Below are positions 1 through 10,432 of a DNA stretch of 10,432 nucleotides, in pieces (positions within the stretch are counted from its first letter, which is position 1; every line of letters starts with the position of its first letter). This DNA is from a virus. The notes below the pieces were generated by a model. It saw only the letters and a program-made list of their open reading frames with translations, made no database searches and was not told where the DNA came from. Both the position numbers and the translations under genes were made by a program. The stretch lies in the UHGV virus genome UHGV-0214677; one strand, written 5' to 3'.

Positions 1-201
1 ATAATGTCGCTACCGCAGGAAACGAAAGAGGAAAAGGAATTTCGCCATTGTATATGGCTTGCAGAGAAAGAAGAACGCGAGCGAATTTACCAGACATCAA
101 TCCGACCATTCCGCAAAGCCACATATACCCACTTCCCTGAATATATCGACCCGCGCCTGCGTAATTACCGCTCACGCTATGGCGCTATCAGTAATGACTG
201 A
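1..201 (+). CDS. Hypothetical prophage protein, probably 3' part of a gene that begins upstream of the window
   Basis: Frame 1 is open from nt 1 with an ATG at 4 and stop TGA at 199-201. The translation ([16 protein letters not shown]...) is protein-like, and the next gene follows 10 nt later with its own SD. No family recognised. Confidence 0.4.
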
Positions 202-211
202 GGAATTTACC

Positions 212-376
212 ATGAGAGGACTTGCATACAATCCCGGCATTCTTCCGGCAGAAATGATTATTCGCCAACGCGTAAAGCCAATGCCATCGAGAGAGGAATT
301 GCTTAAGAGAAATAGTTTCGGTTCTGTTAATGACAACAAATATCTGAATGCGATGTGGCGGAGTGGGAAAAAATGA
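212..376 (+). CDS. Small hypothetical prophage protein (54 aa)
   Basis: ATG at 212 preceded by GAGGA (200-204). Stop TGA at 374-376 overlaps the ATG of the next gene (ATGA). The longer ORF-track call 59..376 would overlap the previous gene out of frame and has no SD. Confidence 0.4.
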
Positions 377-972
377 AACAAATGTCACTAATTGAGATGG
401 ATGGTTTTCTGAAAGGTAAATGCATCCCAAGTGATTTAAAGGTTAACGAAACAAACGCTGAGTATCTGGTGCGTAAATTTGCTGAAGCGGAGGCCAAGAT
501 TTCGGCTCTGTCCGAAGACCACCAGAAAGCGATTGAGTCAATTAAGCAGGCTGATGCGGCTGTTAAGTTGGCACACGAGAAGTTTTCGGCGCTGGCGGCG
601 GAGAATGCGGGGCTGAAGGGTGCGTTTGATAAGCCTCAAGCATATCTATCCTGGCACGCTATTCCACCAAGCTGGGAAGACCCGCTCCCATGCGGTGAAT
701 ATCTTGATGTTCATGACGAGGCAGGACACAAAAACTCCGATGGAACTGATTGCTGGCCGGTATATGCCAAGCCAGAAATCGAGACCACAGCCACCTACGC
801 ATTCCTGGCTGAAGTACGGGCGCAGGGGGTAGAGATGTACGCAGATAACCTCGACAACGGAGCAGACGACGCAGAACGAGGTGGTTTTGATTATGCCGTT
901 AAGTTTCTACGCAGTGAAGCGTCTGGTGTACGTTTGTTCGCCGACCAGCTTCGCAAAGGAGGCAACCAGTGA
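373..972 (+). CDS. Hypothetical prophage protein
   Basis: ATG at 373 preceded by GGAG (359-362), in frame with the ORF-track call 355..972. Stop at 970-972 overlaps the GTG start of the next gene. No family recognised. Confidence 0.55.
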
Positions 973-1829
973 GCAAGATTGATTATCAGGCACTGCGTGC
1001 TAAGGCAGAAAAAGCAACGTGTGGCGAGTGGTCTCTCGAGTATGGAGAGGGCCGATTTGATGGTGATGATGCACTAATTCATCGCGAGGCTGCTGGATAT
1101 ATTCCCATTTGCAGAATTGAAGGAGCGCATCCTGAAAGCGGTTTCGATGAAGATTTCCAAATAGAACAGCAGGCCAATGCTGAATTCATCGCCGCAGCCA
1201 ATCCGGCTACCGTCTTGGCGCTGCTGGATGAACTGGAAAGAAACCAGCAATACATCAAACGCCGCGACCAGGAGAACGAGGATATTGCGCTTACGGTTGG
1301 GAGGCTGCGCGTTGAGCTGGAAGGCAAAGACAGCAAAATAGCCAATCTTACCGCCGAACGCGATGCTCTTCGTGAAGGTGAGATGGGCGACGCTAGGCAT
1401 AGCAACACACGGGCCGCAGCTGATATCTACTTCCAACTGGTCGAGGAGTGCGAAATTCCTGCTGGCGGTTCTCTGGTCGAGTACGTTGACGATATGCGCG
1501 AGAAGCTGGAAGCCGCAGAGAAACGTCTGGCAGAACTACAATCTAAATCCATGCGACCTGTGGCGTGGATGAGAAGCGACGATATTACTACATTTGGACC
1601 AATATTCACCAAGAACGAAAACTATGCTGTTGAGCAGTGGGGAGATAATGCGGTAGCGCTTTATGCATCCCCAGTTAATTTCAAGTTGGCATGCTTCACT
1701 GACGAGAGAAATCTTAAGTACATCAATGAACGAGGAAGGGAGACATCTCTCATCTGGAGCGAAAGAAATTCAGAAAATGGTGATGTTCAACTTTTCCGCG
1801 CCGCAGGCATTCGCATCAAAGGAGAGTGA
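969..1829 (+). CDS. Probable Ead/Ea22-like prophage protein
   Basis: 286-aa ORF with GTG start at 969 preceded by AGGAGG (957-962). N-terminal 'DYQALRAKAEKATCGEW' and a central coiled-coil-like acidic region resemble the Ead/Ea22-like family of lambdoid prophages (recalled, not searched). Confidence 0.65.
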   Translation: MSKIDYQALRAKAEKATCGEWSLEYGEGRFDGDDALIHREAAGYIPICRIEGAHPESGFDEDFQIEQQANAEFIAAANPATVLALLDELERNQQYIKRRDQENEDIALTVGRLRVELEGKDSKIANLTAERDALREGEMGDARHSNTRAAADIYFQLVEECEIPAGGSLVEYVDDMREKLEAAEKRLAELQSKSMRPVAWMRSDDITTFGPIFTKNENYAVEQWGDNAVALYASPVNFKLACFTDERNLKYINERGRETSLIWSERNSENGDVQLFRAAGIRIKGE

Positions 1830-1830
1830 T

Positions 1831-2118
1831 ATGGCAACTTTGCAGGAATTAATCGACCTGACGCCGGAACAGGAAAAAGCGTGGAATCGCCTTGTGAAGG
1901 CTGTAAAGGATTTCAGGGCATCCGGAGGAAAGTTTTATAGCGTCCTGGACACGCTGAGCGCATACAACGGTGAGCACGTTGCCAGCATTGATAACGATAA
2001 GGGCTACCACACTGCAAGCGTCTATATGCCTAGCATTGATGCGCCAGGGCTAACCAGTTGGGCTGATGATTGGCACGGCATCACGCTGAAAGATGGCGTT
2101 GAAGTGGATGAGGACTAA
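1831..2118 (+). CDS. Hypothetical prophage protein (96 aa)
   Basis: ATG at 1831 two nt after the previous stop, preceded by GGAGAG (1821-1826), in frame with ORF-track 1663..2118. The upstream part of that ORF overlaps the previous gene and is unlikely to be translated. Confidence 0.5.
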   Translation: MATLQELIDLTPEQEKAWNRLVKAVKDFRASGGKFYSVLDTLSAYNGEHVASIDNDKGYHTASVYMPSIDAPGLTSWADDWHGITLKDGVEVDED

Positions 2119-2121
2119 CCC

Positions 2122-2814
2122 ATGACCACTATTACCAAAGAGCGACTACTGACAATCAAGCAGTGGCGCGAAACATACGGACCTGGTAGCAACGTTGTAC
2201 TGCCAGCAGAAGAAGCGGAAGAACTGGCACGAATTGCACTGGCATCGCTGGAAGCAGAACCGGTGGCGTGGATGCGTGATGACGCAGATGGTCGTGAGTA
2301 TAACGCTCGCAATGAATTTTCTGATGGAGGGAAAGGAATTCCGCTATATCGTGTGCCGCCAGCGCCGGAAGTGCCGGAAGAAATATATTGGCAGGATGCG
2401 CCAGTTGAAGGCAGCATCAAAGCGGCTGCATACGCTACAGACTGGAACGCCTGCCGCGCCGCCATGCTTCATGGTGCCAAACCTGTAAGCCAGACTTACA
2501 AGTTAAACGAGCTGTCGGGCAACTCTCCGGTAACTCCGGATGGTTGGATAAGCTGTAGTGAGCAGATGCCTGTAATCGGCGAGCTAAATTGGAGAACTAG
2601 TTTTCCTTTACTGGTTACGTGTGAGATCGGCGTTATACCTGCTTATTACGGCTTTGTGAGCGTTAATGGTGATAGGCATTATGGCTTTATGGAGAGTCTT
2701 AAATACGGAGACGATAACGGCAACCATCCTCAAACTAATGAATATGGTCTGATTAGCAATGTCACACACTGGATGCCTCTACCAGAACCGCCTCAGGAGG
2801 TTAACCGTGGCTAA
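2122..2814 (+). CDS. DUF551-family prophage protein
   Basis: 230-aa ORF with ATG at 2122. The C-terminal '...THWMPLPEPP' matches the signature I recall for DUF551 proteins of enterobacterial prophages. Stop overlaps the next gene's start. Confidence 0.65.
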   Translation: MTTITKERLLTIKQWRETYGPGSNVVLPAEEAEELARIALASLEAEPVAWMRDDADGREYNARNEFSDGGKGIPLYRVPPAPEVPEEIYWQDAPVEGSIKAAAYATDWNACRAAMLHGAKPVSQTYKLNELSGNSPVTPDGWISCSEQMPVIGELNWRTSFPLLVTCEIGVIPAYYGFVSVNGDRHYGFMESLKYGDDNGNHPQTNEYGLISNVTHWMPLPEPPQEVNRG

Positions 2815-3088
2815 TCTGCAACTTGCCGTTAAAGGTGAATACTTCGATGCCATGATTCGCGGGGAGAAAACGGAAGAGTATCGCTTGTGTAATGACTACT
2901 GGAATAAGCGAATTATGTTCCGGGAGTATGACCGCCTGATTATCACGAAGGGATATCCGAAGCGCGACGACTTCAGTCGCAGAATTGATGTCCCGTATGA
3001 CGGATATGAAATCAAGACAATCACACATCCCCACTTCGGCGATAAACCGGTAAAGGTATACGCGATAAAGGTGAATATCAATTGCTAA
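2807..3088 (+). CDS. Hypothetical prophage protein, possibly ASCH/PUA-like fold
   Basis: GTG at 2807 preceded by a perfect AGGAGG (2795-2800) with 6-nt spacing, in frame with ORF-track 2759..3088. Overlaps the previous stop by 8 nt. The fold assignment is a weak guess. Confidence 0.5.
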   Translation: MANLQLAVKGEYFDAMIRGEKTEEYRLCNDYWNKRIMFREYDRLIITKGYPKRDDFSRRIDVPYDGYEIKTITHPHFGDKPVKVYAIKVNINC

Positions 3089-3089
3089 A

Positions 3090-3199
3090 TTAGTAGCATA
3101 GCATAAAGATGCTTGCATTAATGAAGTGTGTATAATAACGCCTCATCAATAGTAAACTACTGAAATAGCAAAAAATGCATATTAAAGAGGATTCGAAAA
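3090..3199 (+). promoter_or_regulatory. AT-rich intergenic region with candidate sigma70 -10 element (TATAAT at 3121-3126)
   Basis: Consensus TATAAT hexamer in an AT-rich spacer upstream of the 3200 ORF. The nearest -35-like TTGCAT (3104-3109) is only 11 nt away, so the promoter architecture is unresolved. Confidence 0.3.
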
Positions 3200-3391
3200 T
3201 TGAAAATGTTCATGCAAATAGACAGACGCATAGATATTAATGGCAATTCATACTTAGTTAGATGCGAAGAGAGGCCTAACGGTGAGTGGCGTGTATATGA
3301 TATTGACCGTAAGATCAATATCAGCACCATGAACAAAGACACTGCCTTTGATGAATGGAAAGCTGAAGCTAAAAAACAACATAATTCGTAG
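3200..3391 (+). CDS. Small hypothetical protein (63 aa)
   Basis: ORF with TTG at 3200 (ATG alternatives at 3206 and 3212) preceded by AAAGAGGA (3184-3191). Lies in the AT-rich region. No family recognised. Confidence 0.4.
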   Translation: MKMFMQIDRRIDINGNSYLVRCEERPNGEWRVYDIDRKINISTMNKDTAFDEWKAEAKKQHNS

Positions 3392-3471
3392 AATTACAAA
3401 AACCCTAACCAATTGATGGATTTCTTTTATCTGAACTCGCTACGGCGAGTTTTGTTTTATGGAGATGATAA

Positions 3472-3639
3472 ATGCACTTCCGAGTCACAGGTGAATGGAA
3501 TGGAGAGCCATTCAACAGGGTTATCGAAGCAGAGGACATCAACGACTGCTATAACCACTGGATGATATGGGCGCAGATAGCACATGCAGACGTAACCAAT
3601 ATTCGAATTGAAGAACTGAAAGAACACCAAACCGCCTGA
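3472..3639 (+). CDS. Small hypothetical protein (55 aa), below the ORF-track length cutoff
   Basis: ATG at 3472 preceded by GGAG (3461-3464). Translation MHFRVTGEWNGEPFNRVIEAEDINDCYNHWMIWAQIAHADVTNIRIEELKEHQTA. Stop TGA at 3637-3639 sits in the loop of a canonical terminator hairpin. Confidence 0.5.
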   Translation: MHFRVTGEWNGEPFNRVIEAEDINDCYNHWMIWAQIAHADVTNIRIEELKEHQTA

Positions 3640-3655
3640 TGGCGGTTTTTTATTG
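3630..3655 (+). terminator. Rho-independent terminator
   Basis: Stem ACCGCC (3631-3636) / GGCGGT (3641-3646) with loop TGAT, followed by TTTTTTATT. Confidence 0.7.
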
Positions 3656-3696
3656 CCTGATTTGCAGGTTCGATTCCCTATTCGGAGATAGCACTC

Positions 3697-3897
3697 ATGC
3701 AACACGAACTACAGCCTGATTCACTGGTTGATTTGAAATTCATCATGGCCGATACTGGCTTTGGTAAAACCTTCATCTACGACCGTATTAAGTCCGGCGA
3801 CTTGCCAAAAGCCAAAGTTATCCACGGGCGAGCAAGATGGTTATATCGTGACCATTGTGAATTCAAAAATAAGCTCTTAAGCCGCGCCAATGGGTAA
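3697..3897 (+). CDS. AlpA/Xis-family DNA-binding protein (probable excisionase or integrase regulator)
   Basis: 66-aa ORF with ATG at 3697 preceded by GGAG (3684-3687). The pattern 'LKFIMADTGFGKTFIYDRIKSGDLPKAKVIHGRARWLYRDHCEF' matches the AlpA-family helix-turn-helix signature. Sits immediately upstream of the integrase on the same strand. Confidence 0.8.
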   Translation: MQHELQPDSLVDLKFIMADTGFGKTFIYDRIKSGDLPKAKVIHGRARWLYRDHCEFKNKLLSRANG

Positions 3898-4109
3898 AAT
3901 AGCGGGTAAAATATTTCTCACATCTAAAAAACACCATTCCAATCAATCCCCTGCCGCCTCAAGTAGATGTCTGCAGGGGACACCATTTACACCTCTCCTG
4001 AAATCTACCATATCCCATAAAAAGCCTTTATAATCAGTATATACCCTTACTTATGTTACTCAAATAGTCGCCGTGATTCTCCTCAGGGGTACGTAAATCA
4101 AGTCACATT

Positions 4110-4159
4110 TGGGGGCCTATTTAGGGGCACATATTGGTCAATCTATTGCGAGGCCCCCA
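4110..4159 (+). promoter_or_regulatory. Perfect 9-bp inverted repeat spanning the integrase ribosome-binding site
   Basis: TGGGGGCCT (4110-4118) and AGGCCCCCA (4151-4159) are exact reverse complements 32 nt apart. The right arm contains the GAGG Shine-Dalgarno 7 nt before the int ATG. Confidence 0.3.
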
Positions 4160-4160
4160 G

Positions 4161-5351
4161 ATGCCACTGACAGCTCGACAAGTTGAAACAGCCAAACCCA
4201 AAGATAAAATTTATAAAATTGCCGATGGTGGTGGGCTCTACCTGCAGGTCAATCCTAACGGCTCAAAGTACTGGCGAATGAAGTACCACTATGCAGGGAA
4301 GGAAAAGAAACTATCATTTGGCACCTATCCAACTATTACATTGGCTGAAGCTCGCAAACGTCGGGATGAAGCCAAGAAAATACATGCCGATGGTAAAGAC
4401 CCCGGTGAAGTCAAGAAAGCTGAAAATCTTGAGAAAAACCTTTCTGAAGGAAGAACTTTTGCCACAATCGCCACCGAGTGGTACAACGCAAAAGTTTCAG
4501 GCTGGTCGGCCAGCTACGCTGATTATGTCGACAGAGCATTCAAAAATAATGTGTTTCCCTACATTGGAAACAGACCCATCAGTGATATCGAACCTCTTGA
4601 ACTTCTCGCAGTTCTTCAGCGTATTGAAAGCCGCGGAGCCTGCGAGCTAGCTAATAAAGTTCGCCAACGATGTGGTGAAGTGTTTCGGTATGCCATTGTT
4701 ACAGGTAGGGCTCGATACAATCCAGCCTCTGATCTGGTTATAGCAATGAAAAGCCATAAACGAACACATTACCCATTCCTGCTTCCTCCTGAACTACCAG
4801 AGTTTTTGTACAAACTCGAAAACTACACCGGCAGTATTGTAACCCGTGAAGCTACAAAATTGTTGATGCTCACAGGGCTGAGGACCGTAGAATTACGTAT
4901 GGGGGAATGGTGTGAGATCGATTTTTCCCAAAAAATATGGGAAGTGCCTCCGACCCGGATGAAAATGAGGAAGGAACATATTGTTCCCCTCTCAAATCAG
5001 GCAATTCGGTCTCTCCAAATCCTTAAAGAACTGACGGGAAGATACAGATACATCTTTGCCGGAAGAAATGATGTTAACAGGCCTATCAGCGATGCAAGCG
5101 TCAATATGGTTTTGAAGAAGATTGGCTATGACAAAAAAGCTACCGGGCATGGTTTTCGTCATACAATGAGTACTATTCTACATGAGAAAGGATTCAATAG
5201 TGCATGGATTGAAATGCAACTTGCACATACGGACAAAAACAGCATTCGTGGTACATACAACCATGCTCGTTACCTTGAAGGAAGACGAGAAATGATGCAA
5301 TGGTACGCTGACTACCTTGATGCTATTCGAAAAGATTCCCCAGCTATATAA
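4161..5351 (+). CDS. int: P4-family (DUF4102-type) tyrosine integrase
   Basis: Typical N-terminus 'MPLTARQVETAKPK...GGGLYLQVNPNGSKYWRMKYHYAGKEKKLSFGTYP...LAEARKRRDEAKK'. C-terminal catalytic signature present: R in 'GLRTVELR', 'HGFRHT', and Y in 'IRGTYNHARY'. ATG at 4161 with SD is preferred over the in-frame TTG at 4134 used by the ORF track. Confidence 0.9.
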   Translation: MPLTARQVETAKPKDKIYKIADGGGLYLQVNPNGSKYWRMKYHYAGKEKKLSFGTYPTITLAEARKRRDEAKKIHADGKDPGEVKKAENLEKNLSEGRTFATIATEWYNAKVSGWSASYADYVDRAFKNNVFPYIGNRPISDIEPLELLAVLQRIESRGACELANKVRQRCGEVFRYAIVTGRARYNPASDLVIAMKSHKRTHYPFLLPPELPEFLYKLENYTGSIVTREATKLLMLTGLRTVELRMGEWCEIDFSQKIWEVPPTRMKMRKEHIVPLSNQAIRSLQILKELTGRYRYIFAGRNDVNRPISDASVNMVLKKIGYDKKATGHGFRHTMSTILHEKGFNSAWIEMQLAHTDKNSIRGTYNHARYLEGRREMMQWYADYLDAIRKDSPAI

Positions 5352-5489
5352 TCACTTGATTTTAAAGGCTGACTTAACGAAATACCTTGATAGTCATTTA
5401 TCAGTAATCTAATAGTTAAGTCAGTCATAATCCCCTAAGTATCACTCCTCAATCAGTTTCAGCACATTGTTGACCTGTCTCCAGTATTC

Positions 5490-5913
5490 GATACAACCAT
5501 CAGTCAGCCTGCTGGCACGACGTTGCGACAGACCCGTTGCCTCACACATGACTTCCACGGCTTCCCACTTCTGTTCTGTCGTCAGAATTTCGGTCCAGAG
5601 CTACCTGAAGTACCTCCTTATCCAGCATGGTTTTGGCGAGCAGCGTCTTGAGGGGTCGTTCTCCTCTTCAGGTGTCTTAAGCCGCTTTACCTCAGGGACT
5701 TCTATTCCACCAAACTTCGGCGCCCGGTGTAGAAAGTAGCGTCTGAAATAGCATTCTTGCGGCAGAGTTCCCGGGCAGAAACGCCGGCTACGGCCTCGCG
5801 GAGGATACTGATAATCTGTTCGTCGGAAAACACTTCTTCATGGGGATACCCTAACGTTGCTGATGAAGACATTACTTACATCGTGGTATATTAATAAATG
5901 TGGGAGCAGGTCA
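5490..5913 (-). mobile_element. Degraded IS3-family insertion sequence remnant (IS407-group-like orfA with frameshifts, truncated at its distal end)
   Basis: The - strand reads MSSSATLGYPHEEVFSDEQIISILREAVAGVSARELCRKNAISDATFYT... from ATG at 5870-5872, then breaks frame. Other frames continue with '..EVPEVKRLKT..', '..LLAKTMLDKEVLQVAL..' and '..VEVMCEATGLSQRRASRL', typical of IS3-family OrfA and the OrfB N-terminus. A terminal-repeat-like TGACCTGCTCCCA (reverse complement of 5901-5913) lies 41 nt outside the ATG. The inner boundary near 5490 is approximate. Confidence 0.6.
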
Positions 5914-6058
5914 ACTCCACAATGCAGTCCACTGAGGGAAGAGATCATTAGGTGCAAAGGATCTACATTAGTGGCTGAAAACAACTAGAATTTAGAATTA
6001 AAAAGTTTTATCCTATATTAGTAAGTATTTTTGTTAACACTTTTGTAAGGATACTTTT
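5914..6058 (+). promoter_or_regulatory. Very AT-rich leader and probable promoter region of the SIR2-like/DUF262 operon
   Basis: About 145 bp of AT-rich non-coding DNA between the IS remnant end and the first cassette gene, with several TATA-like hexamers (for example TATATT near 6015) and an AAGGA SD at 6044-6048. No single -35/-10 pair can be assigned confidently. Confidence 0.25.
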
Positions 6059-7108
6059 TTGAGCAGCGAAAAAAAAAAGAAAGTTGGGTTAATGCTTGGG
6101 AATGGATTCACTATTGACCTCCTTAGCAAAATGGACAAACTTGATATAATTGACCCATCCGATCTATTTAAATATGGCGATATGGTTAAGTGGCCCGCCA
6201 CTGGGGAACCCGGTTTTCTTTCTGCTCGATATTGCCCAAATCTATGGCGATTGGGTGCAAGACCCGGGCTAAATAGAACCGCATCATATCAAATAATAGA
6301 AGAATTAATTACAGTAATAAATTTATATGCAACTCTACCTCCAGAAACAATAAAGAAGAAAAATCAGGCAAGTCATACTCCATTGTCAAACATTTACATT
6401 TATGCTTATCAAGAATTAGTTTCATATTTAAGGGAGCTTTTCATTGATTATAACGAAAAAGTTTCCTCTGAAGATCTACGTAAGTTAGAAAGTGGCTGGC
6501 GAGACTATTTGATGAAACTGGACAAAAACGAAAACATAGAACGAGTTGATATTATAACTTATAACTATGACATTTATCTTGAGCGCCTTCTTGATTTACT
6601 TAATATCAGATTTGACATCCCAAACATATCTGACGGGAATGCAAAGTTTAAAATATACAAACCACATGGCTCTATTAGCTTCTTGTATGAAGGATATATG
6701 TCAAAAGATAACTACAATATCCAAAAAGAGTTATCTTTAAATAATGGCGACATATCAAAATTCGAATGCCGGCATGAAAACTTAAGCCTTTACATGCCAT
6801 TAATTCCAATAATACCGCCAGCAGGAGAAGCTCATCGTTATGCCCAAAACTGGGCTAATTCAATTAAAGAGTCTATTGAAGCGACGATGGAGTCGTACAA
6901 CCCAAACGATGATTTCTTCATTTGTGGTATTTCATATTGGCATGTTGATCGTGCCGAAATTGATGCAATAATACGCAAAATAAACAGTGACGTTAATGTT
7001 AGAATGATTAATCCAGGAAATGTTGATGGTTTAAGTGCTATACTTGGAATGGTATTTAATAGTTATGTTCATCATTCATCATCTGAAGTTTTAAAGGAGC
7101 TTGCCTAA
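6059..7108 (+). CDS. SIR2-like (DHS-like NAD-binding, SIR2_2-type) protein; candidate NAD+-consuming effector
   Basis: 349-aa ORF. Three motifs occur in the order expected for SIR2-family defence proteins: a Gly-rich N-terminal loop 'VGLMLGNGFTIDL', 'DIITYNYDIYLERL' (compare the TTNYD motif; predicted Asn ~169) and 'KIYKPHGSISF' (compare the KLHGS motif; predicted His ~203). Start is TTG at 6059 (SD AAGGA at 6044-6048) or the in-frame ATG at 6092. Stop TAA at 7106-7108 overlaps the next start. Confidence 0.6.
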   Translation: MSSEKKKKVGLMLGNGFTIDLLSKMDKLDIIDPSDLFKYGDMVKWPATGEPGFLSARYCPNLWRLGARPGLNRTASYQIIEELITVINLYATLPPETIKKKNQASHTPLSNIYIYAYQELVSYLRELFIDYNEKVSSEDLRKLESGWRDYLMKLDKNENIERVDIITYNYDIYLERLLDLLNIRFDIPNISDGNAKFKIYKPHGSISFLYEGYMSKDNYNIQKELSLNNGDISKFECRHENLSLYMPLIPIIPPAGEAHRYAQNWANSIKESIEATMESYNPNDDFFICGISYWHVDRAEIDAIIRKINSDVNVRMINPGNVDGLSAILGMVFNSYVHHSSSEVLKELA

Positions 7109-8136
7109 TGGAAATTTTAAAGCGGGATTCAAACAGTATTAATATTGCTTCCTTTTGGGAGGGCTTTTCATTAGGCAAATTTAATTTTGATCCTCCTTAT
7201 CAAAGAGATAGTGTTTGGGATGAAGAAAAACAATCATTCTTTATAGATAGTATACTACGTAACTATCCAATTCCCCCTATATTTCTCCATCAAAAAATTG
7301 ATGATGACACCGGAAGAATCACGTTTGAAGTTGTTGACGGAAAACAGAGGCTCACTGCCATTGTTAATTTTATCAATGGCCAAATAACATCAGCAAGTGA
7401 GGAAGAAGATGATGAATTGACTGGTGTGTTTTTTTCCGATTTATCAACTTCTAAATATGCAGAAGTTAAAAAATTATTCTGGCGATATCAGATGCCTATA
7501 GAGTACATTGATACTGAAGACGAAAGAATAATTGATAGTATTTTCGACAGGCTTAACAGAAATGGTGAACGACTTAACGGACAAGAGTTAAGGAATGCCA
7601 AATATCATGATACTGATTTTTATAAAAAAATAGTAGAATATTCACAACGTGAATATTGGCAAAAATTGCTAGAGCACGTTGATAAGAAGAGAATGGAAGA
7701 CAAAGAGTTTGTATCTGAATTGATATTCACGATCCTTGAGGATGAAGTATTTGGTGCAACTCAAGACATAATTGATAGTCTTTACGAGAAGTATTGCACC
7801 AAGAATGGTGATGAAACAAATGAGGCATTTTCTATTTTTGAAAAAACAACTGACTATTTAGTTGATATGAATATTGATTTCAAAAGTCATAAAGCAAGCG
7901 GTGTTAGTCACTTATACGGAATCTTCAGTTATGCACTTTATTGCAGTAACAATAATGTTCCTGTAGAAGAAGCGTCAAATAGACTTTCCACCTTCCTGGA
8001 TAGCTTGTGGGAAAAAGATACACAACATAATGCGGAATTAAGAAGAGAATATAGAAAAACTATGAGTTCTAGCACAAAAAGCAAAACCCAACGCTCACGT
8101 AGAATTGAAGTGCTTTTAAATCTACTTCACGATTAA
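7108..8136 (+). CDS. DUF262 / ParB-like nucleotide-binding domain protein without a C-terminal HNH (DUF1524) domain
   Basis: 342-aa ORF with ATG at 7108 overlapping the upstream stop (TAATG), preceded by AAGGAG (7093-7098). N-terminal 'FDPPYQRDSVWDEEKQSFFIDSIL' and 'EVVDGKQRLTAI' match the two signature motifs of DUF262 (the GmrS / SspE N-terminal ParB-like domain). No His-Me/HNH-like motif is visible in the C-terminal ~140 aa. Confidence 0.75.
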   Translation: MEILKRDSNSINIASFWEGFSLGKFNFDPPYQRDSVWDEEKQSFFIDSILRNYPIPPIFLHQKIDDDTGRITFEVVDGKQRLTAIVNFINGQITSASEEEDDELTGVFFSDLSTSKYAEVKKLFWRYQMPIEYIDTEDERIIDSIFDRLNRNGERLNGQELRNAKYHDTDFYKKIVEYSQREYWQKLLEHVDKKRMEDKEFVSELIFTILEDEVFGATQDIIDSLYEKYCTKNGDETNEAFSIFEKTTDYLVDMNIDFKSHKASGVSHLYGIFSYALYCSNNNVPVEEASNRLSTFLDSLWEKDTQHNAELRREYRKTMSSSTKSKTQRSRRIEVLLNLLHD

Positions 8137-8148
8137 ACTATATAATAG

Positions 8149-8177
8149 TAGGAGTGAACTTCGCTCCTGCTTTTCTC
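8149..8177 (+). terminator. Possible weak intrinsic terminator downstream of the DUF262 gene
   Basis: AGGAG (8150-8154) ... CTCCT (8164-8168) can form a short stem, followed by GCTTTTCTC. The stem is short and the loop long, so this is tentative. Confidence 0.3.
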
Positions 8178-8788
8178 ACTCTATCTTTTATTATTTCTCT
8201 TTGAGATATGAAGTAATACTTTAAAAATATAAATCACATTCATCGCATATGATATTGTGATATCCCCACATGGTGCATGTTCGTAGTCTATCCCTCAGGC
8301 AAATAATAATAGAAAGTTAACCGAATCAGTTATACTCTCACCCAGATATTAGGATGGCTAAATCAACATGAGTGCAAGGATCGTCTTGGGGGAAACATTG
8401 GCACTGTGTGATGGCTCATCATTAAAAAATCAGTTTATATCAAAAGTAAATGATTACAGAAAAACTATATTTATAGATAAAGAAAAAAGCATTTAATTAC
8501 TTCTTAAATATGATAATCACACTCTGTGAAATGATACTTTGACTTACTTCCAATTATTAAACCACGAGATTCATGCATTACCATAATCATTTAAGAAAAC
8601 AAAAGTCCGGCCTTTGCTCTTATCAACCACTACAATTCATAAAGAAATCCTGTTGATGCAAAAAAAAGACATTGATCACAATATCGAGTTAATCATTTGA
8701 AAGTTTATTACTCACATTGAAAAATTTCTCAGTATCAGATATACCAACGTTGAGGGCTTCCCTCTTACATCTCAAAAGGATAACTATC

Positions 8789-8917
8789 ATGGGTCTTAAA
8801 CCAGGTCCAAAACCAATTGCTAAATCGACAGGAAAACCGGATCAACGCCGACGAGATAATAAAGATACTCCTGGCAACACTCCGGGACTAAAGCCAAGTA
8901 AGTCCACCGGGAAGTAA
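8789..8917 (+). CDS. Small Lys/Pro/Gly-rich hypothetical protein (42 aa)
   Basis: ATG at 8789 preceded by AAGGA (8775-8779), within ORF-track 8717..8917, whose TTG start has no SD. Translation MGLKPGPKPIAKSTGKPDQRRRDNKDTPGNTPGLKPSKSTGK is low-complexity. No family recognised. Confidence 0.3.
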   Translation: MGLKPGPKPIAKSTGKPDQRRRDNKDTPGNTPGLKPSKSTGK

Positions 8918-8922
8918 AAAAT

Positions 8923-8951
8923 CAGGGTATAAATAAGTTATTTATACCCTG
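8923..8951. terminator. Perfect palindromic hairpin between convergent genes, probably the terminator of the - strand gene remnant
   Basis: CAGGGTATAAATAA (8923-8936), G, TTATTTATACCCTG (8938-8951): 14-nt arms that are exact reverse complements. An A-run (8916-8921) on the + strand gives a U-tract after the hairpin for the - strand transcript. Confidence 0.55.
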
Positions 8952-8965
8952 ACTACATATCCAGT

Positions 8966-9861
8966 TTACTGAAGGTGTTTCTGCAGCCAGATGCACGTTC
9001 CTTCTGTATCATACGCCTGTGCCCCATACCCTGTAGCAAGCAAAGTCTCTGGTAAATACTCGTCATATTTATCCAGGTACTTGTCAGGAACAACTGCAGC
9101 AAGCTCAAACTCTGAAGGTAACCCCGACAATAACATTTTCTTAAGTGCACGCTGAACAGAGGCAACGCCTGAGCCCTCTACCTCTATCACACCTGCAAAT
9201 GAACTGGCTTTAAAGCCACAACGTATAAGCAGGGACGTAATTGTATTGACAATTTTATCCCCCATCCACGGGATCACGTAGCAGTTCTGACCACTGGCAA
9301 TAAAACAGTGATTTTGTAGATTGTAGCGTTGGAAGTTGTCACTTCCTTCCGCGAAGAGGCTTCTGGCTGCGGCATCAGCATAATCAACTCTCTTGTTGCC
9401 TACCGCGATACGGTAATCATTTTCCCTGTAGATAGCGAGCATCTCCTGGCGAACAACATCATGAACAGACATCCCGCTACCACTGAATAGTGGTGGCTGC
9501 CCGCCTTTAGTCGCCTCAACATAGATAGCTTTTTTTCAACCTCGATCTCTGTCACTTTCCAGCGCTGTCCGCCGAAGATGATGTGCTGCTCCGGCAAAAG
9601 TGGGGAGTCTACAGGCACTGTGCCAAGAGTTCGGTTTCCCGTTACAATGCGAAACTCCTCAGATGTATTGAATACGGCATAAAACGTGTAGTGATTAATC
9701 AGCTTCTCCCCCTCAGCCCCGACAACTATTTAACCGCTGGCTAGTTGAGTGAGCAGGCCACATGTCCCCATATGTTTAAGCAGACTTTTGAAGTCATTTA
9801 TATCCACATTCCGGAACGGACCTGTCTGGCAAAGTTGTGACCAGAGCTGATCGGCACGAAC
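8966..9861 (-). pseudogene. Disrupted gene of unknown function (C-terminal remnant with frameshift and in-frame stop, truncated by IS insertion)
   Basis: ORF-track fragments 8966..9472 and 9400..9618 are adjacent frames of one reading frame, broken at a 7-T homopolymer (9530-9536). Further upstream the reading continues in the same frame as the 9400..9618 fragment but is interrupted by an in-frame TAA near 9735, and the coding sequence runs directly into the IS end at 9862. I could not assign a family. Confidence 0.6.

Positions 9862-10432
<571 letters not shown>

Follow-up and report, generated by a model that had tools for sequence, protein, structure and literature searches.

UHGV virus genome UHGV-0214677 raises the question of what an abrupt change in base composition says about the origin of the DNA in which it occurs and of what that DNA encodes. 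The stretch that was analyzed (10,432 nucleotides of one strand, called the window below and the reference for window coordinates) contains a cassette with a low guanine-plus-cytosine (GC) content and two adjacent genes, orfA and orfB, in DNA that matches the region downstream of the tRNA-Arg gene argW of Escherichia coli. The explanation that accounts best for the locus as a whole, and that we regard as probable, is that the cassette is a mobile module in a variable argW slot and that it carries a putative anti-phage abortive-infection pair.

The change in composition was analyzed by two approaches. When a 400-bp sliding window was used, GC content was 0.30–0.37 over the stretch from ~5900 to ~8800, compared with 0.44–0.54 at positions 1–3000, 0.42–0.46 in the integrase gene, and 0.45–0.53 at 8800–10432. 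A two-boundary maximum-likelihood change-point analysis placed the low-GC block at 5955–8825 (gain of ~79 nats), with 33.5% GC inside it versus ~47% in the rest of the window, and the GC counts inside and outside of this block differ with a chi-square of 154.8 (p=1.5e-35). When the window was divided by feature, GC content was 0.493 in the phage genes at 1–3088, 0.442 in the integrase gene, 0.475 in a remnant of an insertion sequence (IS), and 0.479 in a helicase remnant, and it was 0.317 at 5914–6058, 0.351 in orfA, 0.336 in orfB, and 0.314 at 8137–8716. An earlier note on this DNA had described positions 5900 to 8900 as markedly AT-rich relative to their flanks, and the sliding-window, change-point, and chi-square results agree with that description. 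Of the edges that it gave, the left one (5913) is close to the position at which composition changes, and the right one lies nearer to 8825 than to 8900.

The same bias is present in the codons of the two genes, as the earlier note had also proposed. GC content at third codon positions (GC3) is 0.30 in orfA and 0.27 in orfB, compared with 0.40 in the integrase gene and 0.43–0.68 in nine neighboring core genes of E. coli ATCC 8739. Codons that are rare in E. coli are frequent in the pair (16 ATA and 4 AGA codons in orfA, 9 and 10 in orfB), and for leucine each gene uses CTG only once versus 13 (orfA) and 9 (orfB) TTA codons. Lys, Asn, and Ile are abundant in both predicted proteins, as would be the case if the GC shift reflected amino acid composition or chance and held no information on origin. 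We consider this extremely improbable. The AT bias of orfA and orfB is strongest at synonymous sites, where GC3 is below overall GC, so amino acid composition is not its cause; the non-coding segments 5914–6058 and 8137–8716 are as AT-rich as the genes; the chi-square p value given above speaks against chance; and the presence/absence data described below show mobility independently of composition.

In E. coli ATCC 8739 and ~14 other complete genomes, the DNA that immediately follows argW, beside yfdC, matches positions 3971–10432 with 99.9–100% identity. When positions 5914–8825 were used as a query, the cassette was present at a coverage of at least 80% in 26 of 5426 complete E. coli genomes, and another 414 genomes matched only the right-hand part of this query. 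For the integrase region, 266 genomes gave a match; it has two alleles, one in 32 genomes at an identity of at least 99% and one in 244 at ~96%. Five genomes with the ~96% allele were inspected (THO-010, 2014C-3050, strain 613, KD602, and 2014C-3057), and all five contain other cargo in the same slot, between the same integrase gene and the same right-hand side, which belongs to the defense system Shango (the TerB-N, ATPase, and helicase components are intact in three of them). The integrase gene is thus the conserved left anchor of a variable slot, and the locus has what is expected of a tRNA-integrated island, namely an integrase gene beside a repeat of a tRNA 3′ end and two cargo states between conserved anchors.

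Pairwise blastn alignments with these alternative islands show homology over 3971–5470 that stops there and resumes at 8657. From the breakpoints at 5470/5471 and 8656/8657, we conclude that the exchanged segment is 5471–8656 (3.2 kb), which includes an IS fragment of normal GC content together with the AT-rich DNA. At the left edge, the drop in GC content occurs between 5850 and 5955, and IS-homologous sequence stops near 5920; at the right edge, low GC continues for ~170 bp beyond the 8656/8657 breakpoint. The alternative cargo consists of a PapB-like gene, an IS3 element, a gene for an HsdR-N-domain protein, and a gene for a hypothetical protein, and it has a GC content of 44–45%. An AT-rich slot was considered as a source of the shift and is ruled out by these values, which tie the shift to this particular cargo. 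The HsdR-N-terminal-domain proteins of the alternative cargo are 565–786 amino acids long and are accompanied by one or two hypothetical proteins (locus L002, 3749–6104; L005, 18115–22135; L083, 14116–18131), and this cargo may be another candidate defense module.

From these results, we conclude that the cassette is very probably mobile and constitutes the cargo of a variable slot in the island. The comparison of the locus across related genomes, which the earlier note had suggested as a check, finds different cargo at the same place downstream of the integrase gene. Its proposal of a hotspot beside the integrase is retained with borders corrected to 5471–8656, which place the IS remnant inside of the exchanged segment rather than at its edge, but its alternative of an IS-bounded site is not, since the right border is formed by the conserved Shango-side segment and not by an IS.

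Copies of the module were also found outside of E. coli. The core at 5972–8251 is present at 87% nucleotide identity (blastn) in Klebsiella oxytoca NBRC 105695, where it lies within the tra-gene cluster of an integrative element, with genes for TraG_N, TraU, and DUF1525 proteins on one side and for TraC and TrbI on the other, and where GC content changes abruptly from 0.56 to 0.34 and back. This locus (L006, 1–13047) resembles cargo in a hotspot of an integrative and conjugative element (ICE), between the DUF1525/TraU block and TraC; a second AT-rich patch in it (400–1200) contains an open reading frame (ORF) for a cold-shock-domain/DUF308 protein. In Proteus mirabilis, homology extends over 5979–8212 (83% identity), with a LysE-family gene on one side of the module and a prophage integrase gene on the other. 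A different site again is occupied by a 72%-identical variant in an enterobacterial genome with flanks of 58% GC. The extents of the Klebsiella and Proteus homology indicate that the moving unit is ~2.3 kb and consists of a leader, the two genes, and a terminator hairpin. In E. coli, the AT-rich tail at 8252–8656 (405 bp, ~31% GC) lies within the exchanged segment, but the Klebsiella and Proteus copies lack it; the tail contains no ORF longer than 42 amino acids, no RNA family match in Rfam, and no remnant of a methylase or restriction gene. The claim of the earlier note that the cassette was acquired separately is supported by stronger evidence than base composition, namely by its presence in only 26 of the 5426 genomes, by other cargo at its site, and by the 87 and 83% identical copies in Klebsiella and Proteus.

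Searches for the module gave no match in phages and one match among 72,556 plasmids (Sulfurovum). An intact pair is also present in the archaeal methanogen Methanimicrococcus blatticola (locus L074; 40% identity for orfA and 49% for orfB), with 30% GC versus 41% in its flanks. This archaeal copy indicates that the pair has probably been transferred between domains.

The two genes are organized as an operon. orfA (6059–7108, + strand, 349 codons) begins with a TTG start preceded at a distance of 6 nucleotides by an AAGGA ribosome-binding site, and orfB (7108–8136, + strand, 342 codons) begins with an ATG that overlaps the TAA stop of orfA (TAATG). The AT-rich leader, which by blastn is shared with the Klebsiella and Proteus copies, is at 5972–6058 on the same strand; σ70-like hexamers are found at 5962–5991 and 5991–6019, at a level that is not above chance expectation in a consensus scan. 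The operon ends with an intrinsic-terminator-like hairpin at 8147–8171 (+ strand; 11-bp stem followed by UUUUCUC; −15.9 kcal/mol, z=−4.8), which a simple consensus scan did not flag, and no ORF above 66 amino acids is present in the ~800 bp after it.

This arrangement is conserved. Among 74 genome loci recovered with an orfA profile, 66 have an orfB homolog directly downstream on the same strand, and the hosts of these are bacteria of many phyla and a single archaeon. Among the loci that lack it, four are explained by the end of a contig or by truncation or disruption of the copy, and three contain divergent clostridial relatives of orfA. The stop and start codons overlap in 49 of 59 intact pairs (median gap of −4 nucleotides), and a Mantel test gave a correlation between the distance matrices of the two proteins (r=0.78, p=0.001). 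No third gene is shared by all of the 66 loci, where only restriction-modification (R-M) genes recur. Taken together, the arrangement and its conservation identify orfA and orfB as a predicted translationally coupled operon.

The wide distribution of the pair made it possible to ask what its low GC content means. The comparison was made at 59 loci, in hosts that belong to the Proteobacteria, Bacteroidota, Bacillota, Verrucomicrobiota, Planctomycetota, Cyanobacteria, and Nitrospirota and in a methanogen, and it set the GC content of the pair against that of left and right flanking sequence at a distance of more than 1 kb. The pair is more AT-rich than its flanks at all 59 loci, by a mean of 10.4 GC points, and the difference exceeds 5 points at 51 of them (Wilcoxon p=2.4e-11). 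Flank GC ranges from 28 to 72% across these loci, and the GC content of the cassette follows it (r=0.79), at a constant distance of ~10 points; even in a Sulfurimonas host of 33% GC, the pair has 26%. Because the pair is AT-richer at every locus, we conclude that AT-richness is a trait of this module in every host and not the fingerprint of a donor. Mobile and defense DNA is commonly more AT-rich than its host and in enterobacteria is a target of H-NS, and the pattern observed here fits that behavior.

The earlier note had instead proposed a low-GC donor, which in its strongest form would be a recent import from a single source, for example among the Morganellaceae, whose composition the cassette would still record. 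This explanation agrees with the enterobacterial copies, which keep 32–34% GC whatever the host, although their local flanks range from 34 to 58%, and with the closest protein relatives, which include those of Proteus and Providencia (87–88% identity). It also agrees with the P. mirabilis copy being the only one near its surroundings (32% versus 34%), but those flanks are partly prophage. The 59-locus comparison argues against it, since the pair is also AT-richer in hosts of 33–39% GC and since a correlation of 0.79 with a fixed offset fits a class-wide bias; in addition, no copy above 87% nucleotide identity, and hence no near-identical donor copy, was found outside of E. coli. We therefore regard import from a single low-GC donor as unlikely, though by no means negligible, and a low-GC enterobacterial pool or reservoir as a plausible source. 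The compositional shift by itself is ordinary genomic-island behavior, and the 59-locus result is a clear case against reading an AT-rich island as evidence of a low-GC donor.

The predicted product of orfA is a defense-type SIR2-like protein of 349 amino acids, an assignment based on an AlphaFold2 (AF2) model, Foldseek comparisons, and motif conservation. In Pfam, orfA matches AbiH (E=9.7e-5, residues 99–311) and SIR2_2 with scores below the gathering thresholds (23.0 versus 30.9 bits and 18.2 versus 24.5 bits, respectively). A search of a protein set of 5.8 billion sequences recovered ~690 homologs, and 560 clusters at 50% identity were found at E≤1e-3; judged by these numbers, the orfA family is rare but phylogenetically wide. 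In an alignment of 32 diverse homologs, G14-N15-G16, Y170-D171, K201-P-H203-G-S, and S292-YWHVDR are invariant, and N169 is kept in at least 90%. The AF2 model has a predicted local distance difference test (pLDDT) score of 88.5 and a predicted template modeling (pTM) score of 0.89. When it was compared with the Protein Data Bank (PDB) by Foldseek, the top 50 matches listed were all antiphage SIR2 proteins or complexes (SIR2-HerA/Nezha, ThsA, DSR2, KomBC, and HAM-SIR2), with a best E value of 5e-10, a probability of 1.0 for all but one (0.98), and template modeling (TM) scores of ~0.5. A PDB sequence search with the orfA profile gave only a marginal SIR2 match, and identity to solved SIR2 proteins is 10–16%.

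In a profile search, the TYNYD and KPHGS segments of orfA align with TTNYD and KLHGS of a Paenibacillus SIR2 protein (PsSIR2, 8w9l). The putative catalytic residues of PsSIR2 are N163, D165, and H212 (PMC11472057), and these are the residues to which N169, D171, and H203 of orfA align. From the SIR2 fold and the N-x-D...H match to PsSIR2, we conclude that orfA is a defense-type SIR2 protein with a predicted intact active site, and these models point to an effector that would consume nicotinamide adenine dinucleotide (NAD+). The divergent clostridial relatives mentioned above (~32% identity, ~395 amino acids, with an insertion of ~25 amino acids in the helical region) have no DUF262 partner (L070, 5983–7167; L072, 2281–3471; and L075), and they may be single-gene AbiH-like versions.

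orfB encodes a predicted ParB/DUF262 (GmrSD_N) protein of 342 amino acids with a helical C-terminal domain, as determined from Pfam, PADLOC, and AF2 analyses. It matches PF03235 with an E value of 3.7e-27 (96.2 bits versus a threshold of 33.2 bits), the PADLOC profile NsnA with 1.9e-39 (residues 11–340 versus profile positions 51–379 of 385), and PD-T4-2_A with 1.4e-27. The three motifs of DUF262 proteins, as defined previously (PMC12065111), are invariant among 32 homologs: QRxxxW at 32–37 (Q32, R33, and W37), DGKQR at 77–81, and FDRLN at 146–150 (F146 and N150). Several residues of the helical C-terminal half are also invariant in these homologs. The folds closest to the AF2 model are BrxU (the best match), ParB-CDP/CTP, Noc, and sulfiredoxin; a PDB sequence search with orfB found nothing. 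No match to a DUF1524/HNH nuclease domain was found in orfB, whose C-terminal half is all-helical, so orfB cannot itself be a restriction nuclease. By analogy with its relatives, orfB would be an NTP-binding and DNA-binding protein and a putative sensor.

Characterized relatives of both proteins suggest how such a pair might act. The DUF262 domain binds nucleoside triphosphate (NTP) and senses modified DNA in GmrSD, BrxU, and SspE, and a DUF262 protein is probably also the DNA-modification sensor of Dazbog (PMC10952713; bioRxiv 10.1101/2022.08.27.505566). In PD-T4-2 and Menshen, DUF262 proteins that lack a nuclease domain are combined with toxic effectors encoded separately, a HEPN protein in the former and diverse nucleases in the latter. 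SIR2 domains recur as NAD+-depleting effectors joined to many different sensors. On the basis of the models and these analogies, we give about an even chance, or slightly better, to the pair being a DUF262-sensed SIR2 abortive-infection system. In such a system, orfB would sense invading DNA, probably its modification state, and would release or activate orfA, and orfA, once active, would deplete NAD+ and thereby cause abortive infection. The defense function, the depletion of NAD+, the nature of the trigger, and a physical interaction between the two proteins are what we infer here; in support of them are a conserved operon, folds with intact motifs, and mobile or defense neighborhoods. The neighborhoods consist of defense or mobile DNA, represented by Shango in the window and by R-M genes, integrases, and transposases at other loci.

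Several results weigh against this assignment. orfA has no convincing PADLOC defense model (its matches are generic weak SIR2 ones, the best with E=1.3e-3), it falls under the Pfam thresholds for AbiH and SIR2_2, and its TM scores to solved SIR2 proteins are only ~0.5. The solo clostridial relatives imply that the SIR2-like protein is not strictly dependent on orfB, and the correlation of the A and B distances could be explained by co-inheritance alone. Finally, because the Shango system next to the cassette in E. coli is decaying, selection on the island as a whole may be weak.

It is also conceivable that the pair is unrelated to phage defense and is instead a selfish addiction or toxin-antitoxin-like module, or an accessory for partition or maintenance that combines a ParB-like protein with a deacylase. 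The ParB fold of orfB, the deacylase activity of canonical sirtuins, and the location of the pair in a Klebsiella ICE and beside integrases elsewhere would be in keeping with such a role. However, the pair is found in only 1 of the 72,556 plasmids and in none of the phages, and many of its loci are flanked by housekeeping genes. In addition, the structural neighbors listed for orfA are all antiphage SIR2 NADases or complexes and not deacetylases, and orfB falls in the DUF262/GmrSD branch and not in the partition ParB branch. A role outside of defense is thus improbable.

The neighbors of the pair provide information on what an abortive-infection system of this type might recognize. When the ORFs around the 66 loci were clustered, a C5-cytosine DNA methyltransferase was found within 3.5 kb of the pair at 24 of them (L007, L014, L020, L025, L026, L028, L029, L034, L038, L041, L045, L046, L048, L049, L052, L053, L055, L057, L058, L061, L062, L067, L073, and L076), in most cases co-directional and abutting. 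Its usual companion is a type II endonuclease of the Cfr10I/Bse634I (6 loci), NgoMIV (3 loci), NaeI (3 loci), or HNH (4 loci) type, and the gene orders methyltransferase-endonuclease-orfA-orfB and orfA-orfB-methyltransferase-endonuclease both occur, in several phyla. Among the 110 nearest large neighbor proteins that were scanned, the only recurring families are C5-methylases (11), endonucleases, integrases, and transposases. The Cfr10I/Bse634I, NgoMIV, and NaeI families cut sites with a CCGG core.

Related observations have been made for other DUF262 systems. For Menshen, 27.9% of the operons are linked to R-M or methylase genes (PMC12065111), and in the case of Dazbog, a phage CCGG cytosine methylase by itself triggers toxicity (bioRxiv 10.1101/2022.08.27.505566). 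By analogy, the C5-methylase association found here suggests a modification-sensing role, with the cytosine methylation state as a possible trigger, and the recurrence of this link with CCGG-family restriction makes that specific trigger open to experiment. It is a tentative possibility, well short of an even chance, that the pair is a two-gene abortive-infection system in which orfB, which has no nuclease domain, would read the cytosine modification of incoming DNA and turn on NAD+ depletion by orfA, and that about one-third of its copies are coupled to a CCGG-family 5-methylcytosine (5mC) R-M system as a second line against self-methylating phages.

A stronger form of this proposal would make the pair an accessory second-line module of type II 5mC R-M systems, with orfB reading the methylation that is set, or evaded, at CCGG-type sites, orfA killing the cell when restriction is bypassed, and the solo E. 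coli copy being a fragment of a four-gene unit. The 24 of 66 loci with a C5-methyltransferase, in both gene orders and in several phyla, would be explained by it, as would the CCGG-methylase trigger of Dazbog and the methylase link of Menshen. Nevertheless, 42 of the 66 loci are solo, including those of E. coli, Klebsiella, and Proteus, and the window contains no remnant of a methyltransferase or restriction endonuclease gene; defense genes also cluster for non-functional reasons, and the specificities of the enzymes are taken from family names only. We consider an accessory role of this kind distinctly unlikely, and we retain the abortive-infection pair as the preferred reading.

The remainder of the window places the cassette in a composite island. 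Positions 1–3970 (+ strand, GC 0.49) represent the right (torI) end of a KplE1/CPS-53-like prophage, as identified by megablast and RefSeq annotation, with ead/Ea22-like, DUF551, and ASCH genes and the excisionase gene torI at 3697–3897 (+ strand). This prophage end lies outside of the cassette and is followed by an attachment (att) core that is a copy of the argW 3′ end, ctgcaggggacacca (3971–3986, + strand). Identity with other E. coli argW islands begins at this core, and position 3971 is inside of the last 15 nucleotides of the tRNA-Arg gene; no intact tRNA gene is present in the window. The gene for the tyrosine integrase of the argW island is at 4161–5351 (+ strand; Pfam Arm-DNA-bind_3, Phage_int_M, and Phage_integrase domains, NCBIfam, and RefSeq). 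By its sequence, then, the window is a case of tandem occupancy of argW, in which a prophage is followed by an attR copy and then by an older integrase island. Strain 2014C-3057 has the same order of torI and integrase genes, and in other strains the upstream argW position contains a different element, with H-NS-family and DUF6387 genes (locus L084).

The IS fragment inside of the exchanged segment is the 5′ part of an IS3-family element (5471–5920, − strand; annotated in RefSeq as “transposase, frameshifted, incomplete”). It contains an IS1222-type frameshift element (5498–5614; Rfam RF00383, 98.5 bits), which is the sole Rfam match in the window. Copies of the fragment with at least 99% identity occur only in cassette-bearing genomes (29 records), whereas elsewhere in E. 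coli only remnants of ~80% identity, and no close full-length relative, were found. The fragment probably arrived together with the cassette. That it is a second copy of IS1203, which would have implied an IS-mediated deletion, was considered and rejected, as the two have no nucleotide similarity.

To the right of the slot, the conserved segment that is common to the alternative islands starts at 8657 and extends to 8965 (+ strand; blastn breakpoints). It contains a small Pro/Lys/Gly-rich ORF of 42 amino acids, MGLKPGPKPIAKSTGKPDQRRRDNKDTPGNTPGLKPSKSTGK (8789–8917, + strand), followed by a strong bidirectional hairpin with a 16-bp stem (8920–8954, terminator scan). More than 400 E. coli genomes have the segment with this ORF and hairpin next to Shango, and it is also present at an unrelated site in CFT073 (locus L003, 89% identity). 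Beyond it lies the C-terminal piece of a pseudogene for the Shango helicase SngC, a DEAD/DEAH box protein (8966–9867, − strand; PADLOC SngC 4.9e-30, RefSeq pseudogene). This remnant is cut off by IS1203 (9862–10432, − strand; IS3 family, RefSeq annotation and blastn), which is itself cut by the end of the window. Shango is intact in THO-010 and strain 613, and SngABC are intact in alternative islands (L002, 9311–15135; L083, 18613 onward). Within the cassette lineage, Shango decays stepwise, from a frameshifted full-length sngC and a partial sngB in TK3046 to the sngC C terminus alone in the window. No report of argW as a defense-island hotspot was found in the literature, and neither argW nor yfdC is mentioned by Hochhauser et al.

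The pair was compared with the named systems that contain related proteins. The system with the closest sensor is Menshen (NsnABC; PMC12065111), since orfB matches NsnA over its full length and has the same architecture of a ParB-DUF262 domain and a helical C terminus with three motifs, and since both systems are frequently linked to methylases. Unlike Menshen, the pair has neither the NsnB ATPase nor the NsnC inPIN-nuclease effector, and instead has a SIR2-like partner upstream and a terminator right after orfB; neither SIR2 nor sirtuins are mentioned in the main text of the paper on Menshen. PD-T4-2 of E. coli ECOR65 (DUF262 plus HEPN), which protects against T4 (PMC9519451), is, like the pair, a two-gene system of a nuclease-less DUF262 protein and a separate toxic effector. 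In the pair described here, however, the predicted effector is SIR2-like and not HEPN, its gene comes first, and orfB matches the PD-T4-2 protein less well than it matches NsnA.

With GmrSD, BrxU, and SspE, orfB shares the DUF262 (GmrSD_N) domain and its QRxxxW, DGxQR, and FxxxN motifs, and BrxU is its best structural neighbor, but orfB lacks the DUF1524/HNH nuclease domain. Dazbog resembles the pair as a two-gene DUF262 abortive-infection system, and its CCGG-methylation trigger echoes the C5-methylase and CCGG-family endonuclease neighbors found here. In contrast, neither orfA nor orfB matches DzbA or DzbB in PADLOC at E≤0.01, and the DUF262 gene is first in Dazbog and second here.

On the effector side, orfA has the SIR2 fold and the N...D...H residues of the defense sirtuins (SIR2-HerA/Nezha, ThsA, DSR1/2, SPARSA, Avs5, and KomC), and, as in these proteins, its role would be to deplete NAD+ in combination with a sensor that can be exchanged; it differs in having a DUF262 protein as its partner. 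From SIR2-HerA (Nezha) in particular, the pair differs in that no HerA-type ATPase is present and the DUF262 protein is the sole operon partner. AbiH, a lactococcal single-gene abortive-infection protein (PF14253), is the best Pfam match of orfA, and the clostridial orfA relatives of ~395 amino acids are also solo. Nevertheless, the match is below the gathering score, and most members of the orfA family need, or at least keep, a DUF262 partner.

A pairing of SIR2 and DUF262 was not found as a named system in PADLOC v2 or NCBIfam, and NCBIfam contains no model for either protein. No description of such a pairing, or of a ParB-like protein with a SIR2 NADase, was found in the literature, in which subscription papers were only partly covered. 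The pair fails a defining feature of each named system considered, and it looks like a widespread anti-phage system without a name. The cassette is small and present in standard strains, such as E. coli ATCC 8739, and it is directly testable. In this comparison, the pair joins two known defense parts, a predicted DUF262 sensor and a predicted SIR2 NADase effector, in a combination that we did not find named, and it would add a further effector to the scheme, known from GmrSD (HNH), PD-T4-2 (HEPN), and Menshen (nucleases), in which one type of sensor is combined with exchangeable effectors.

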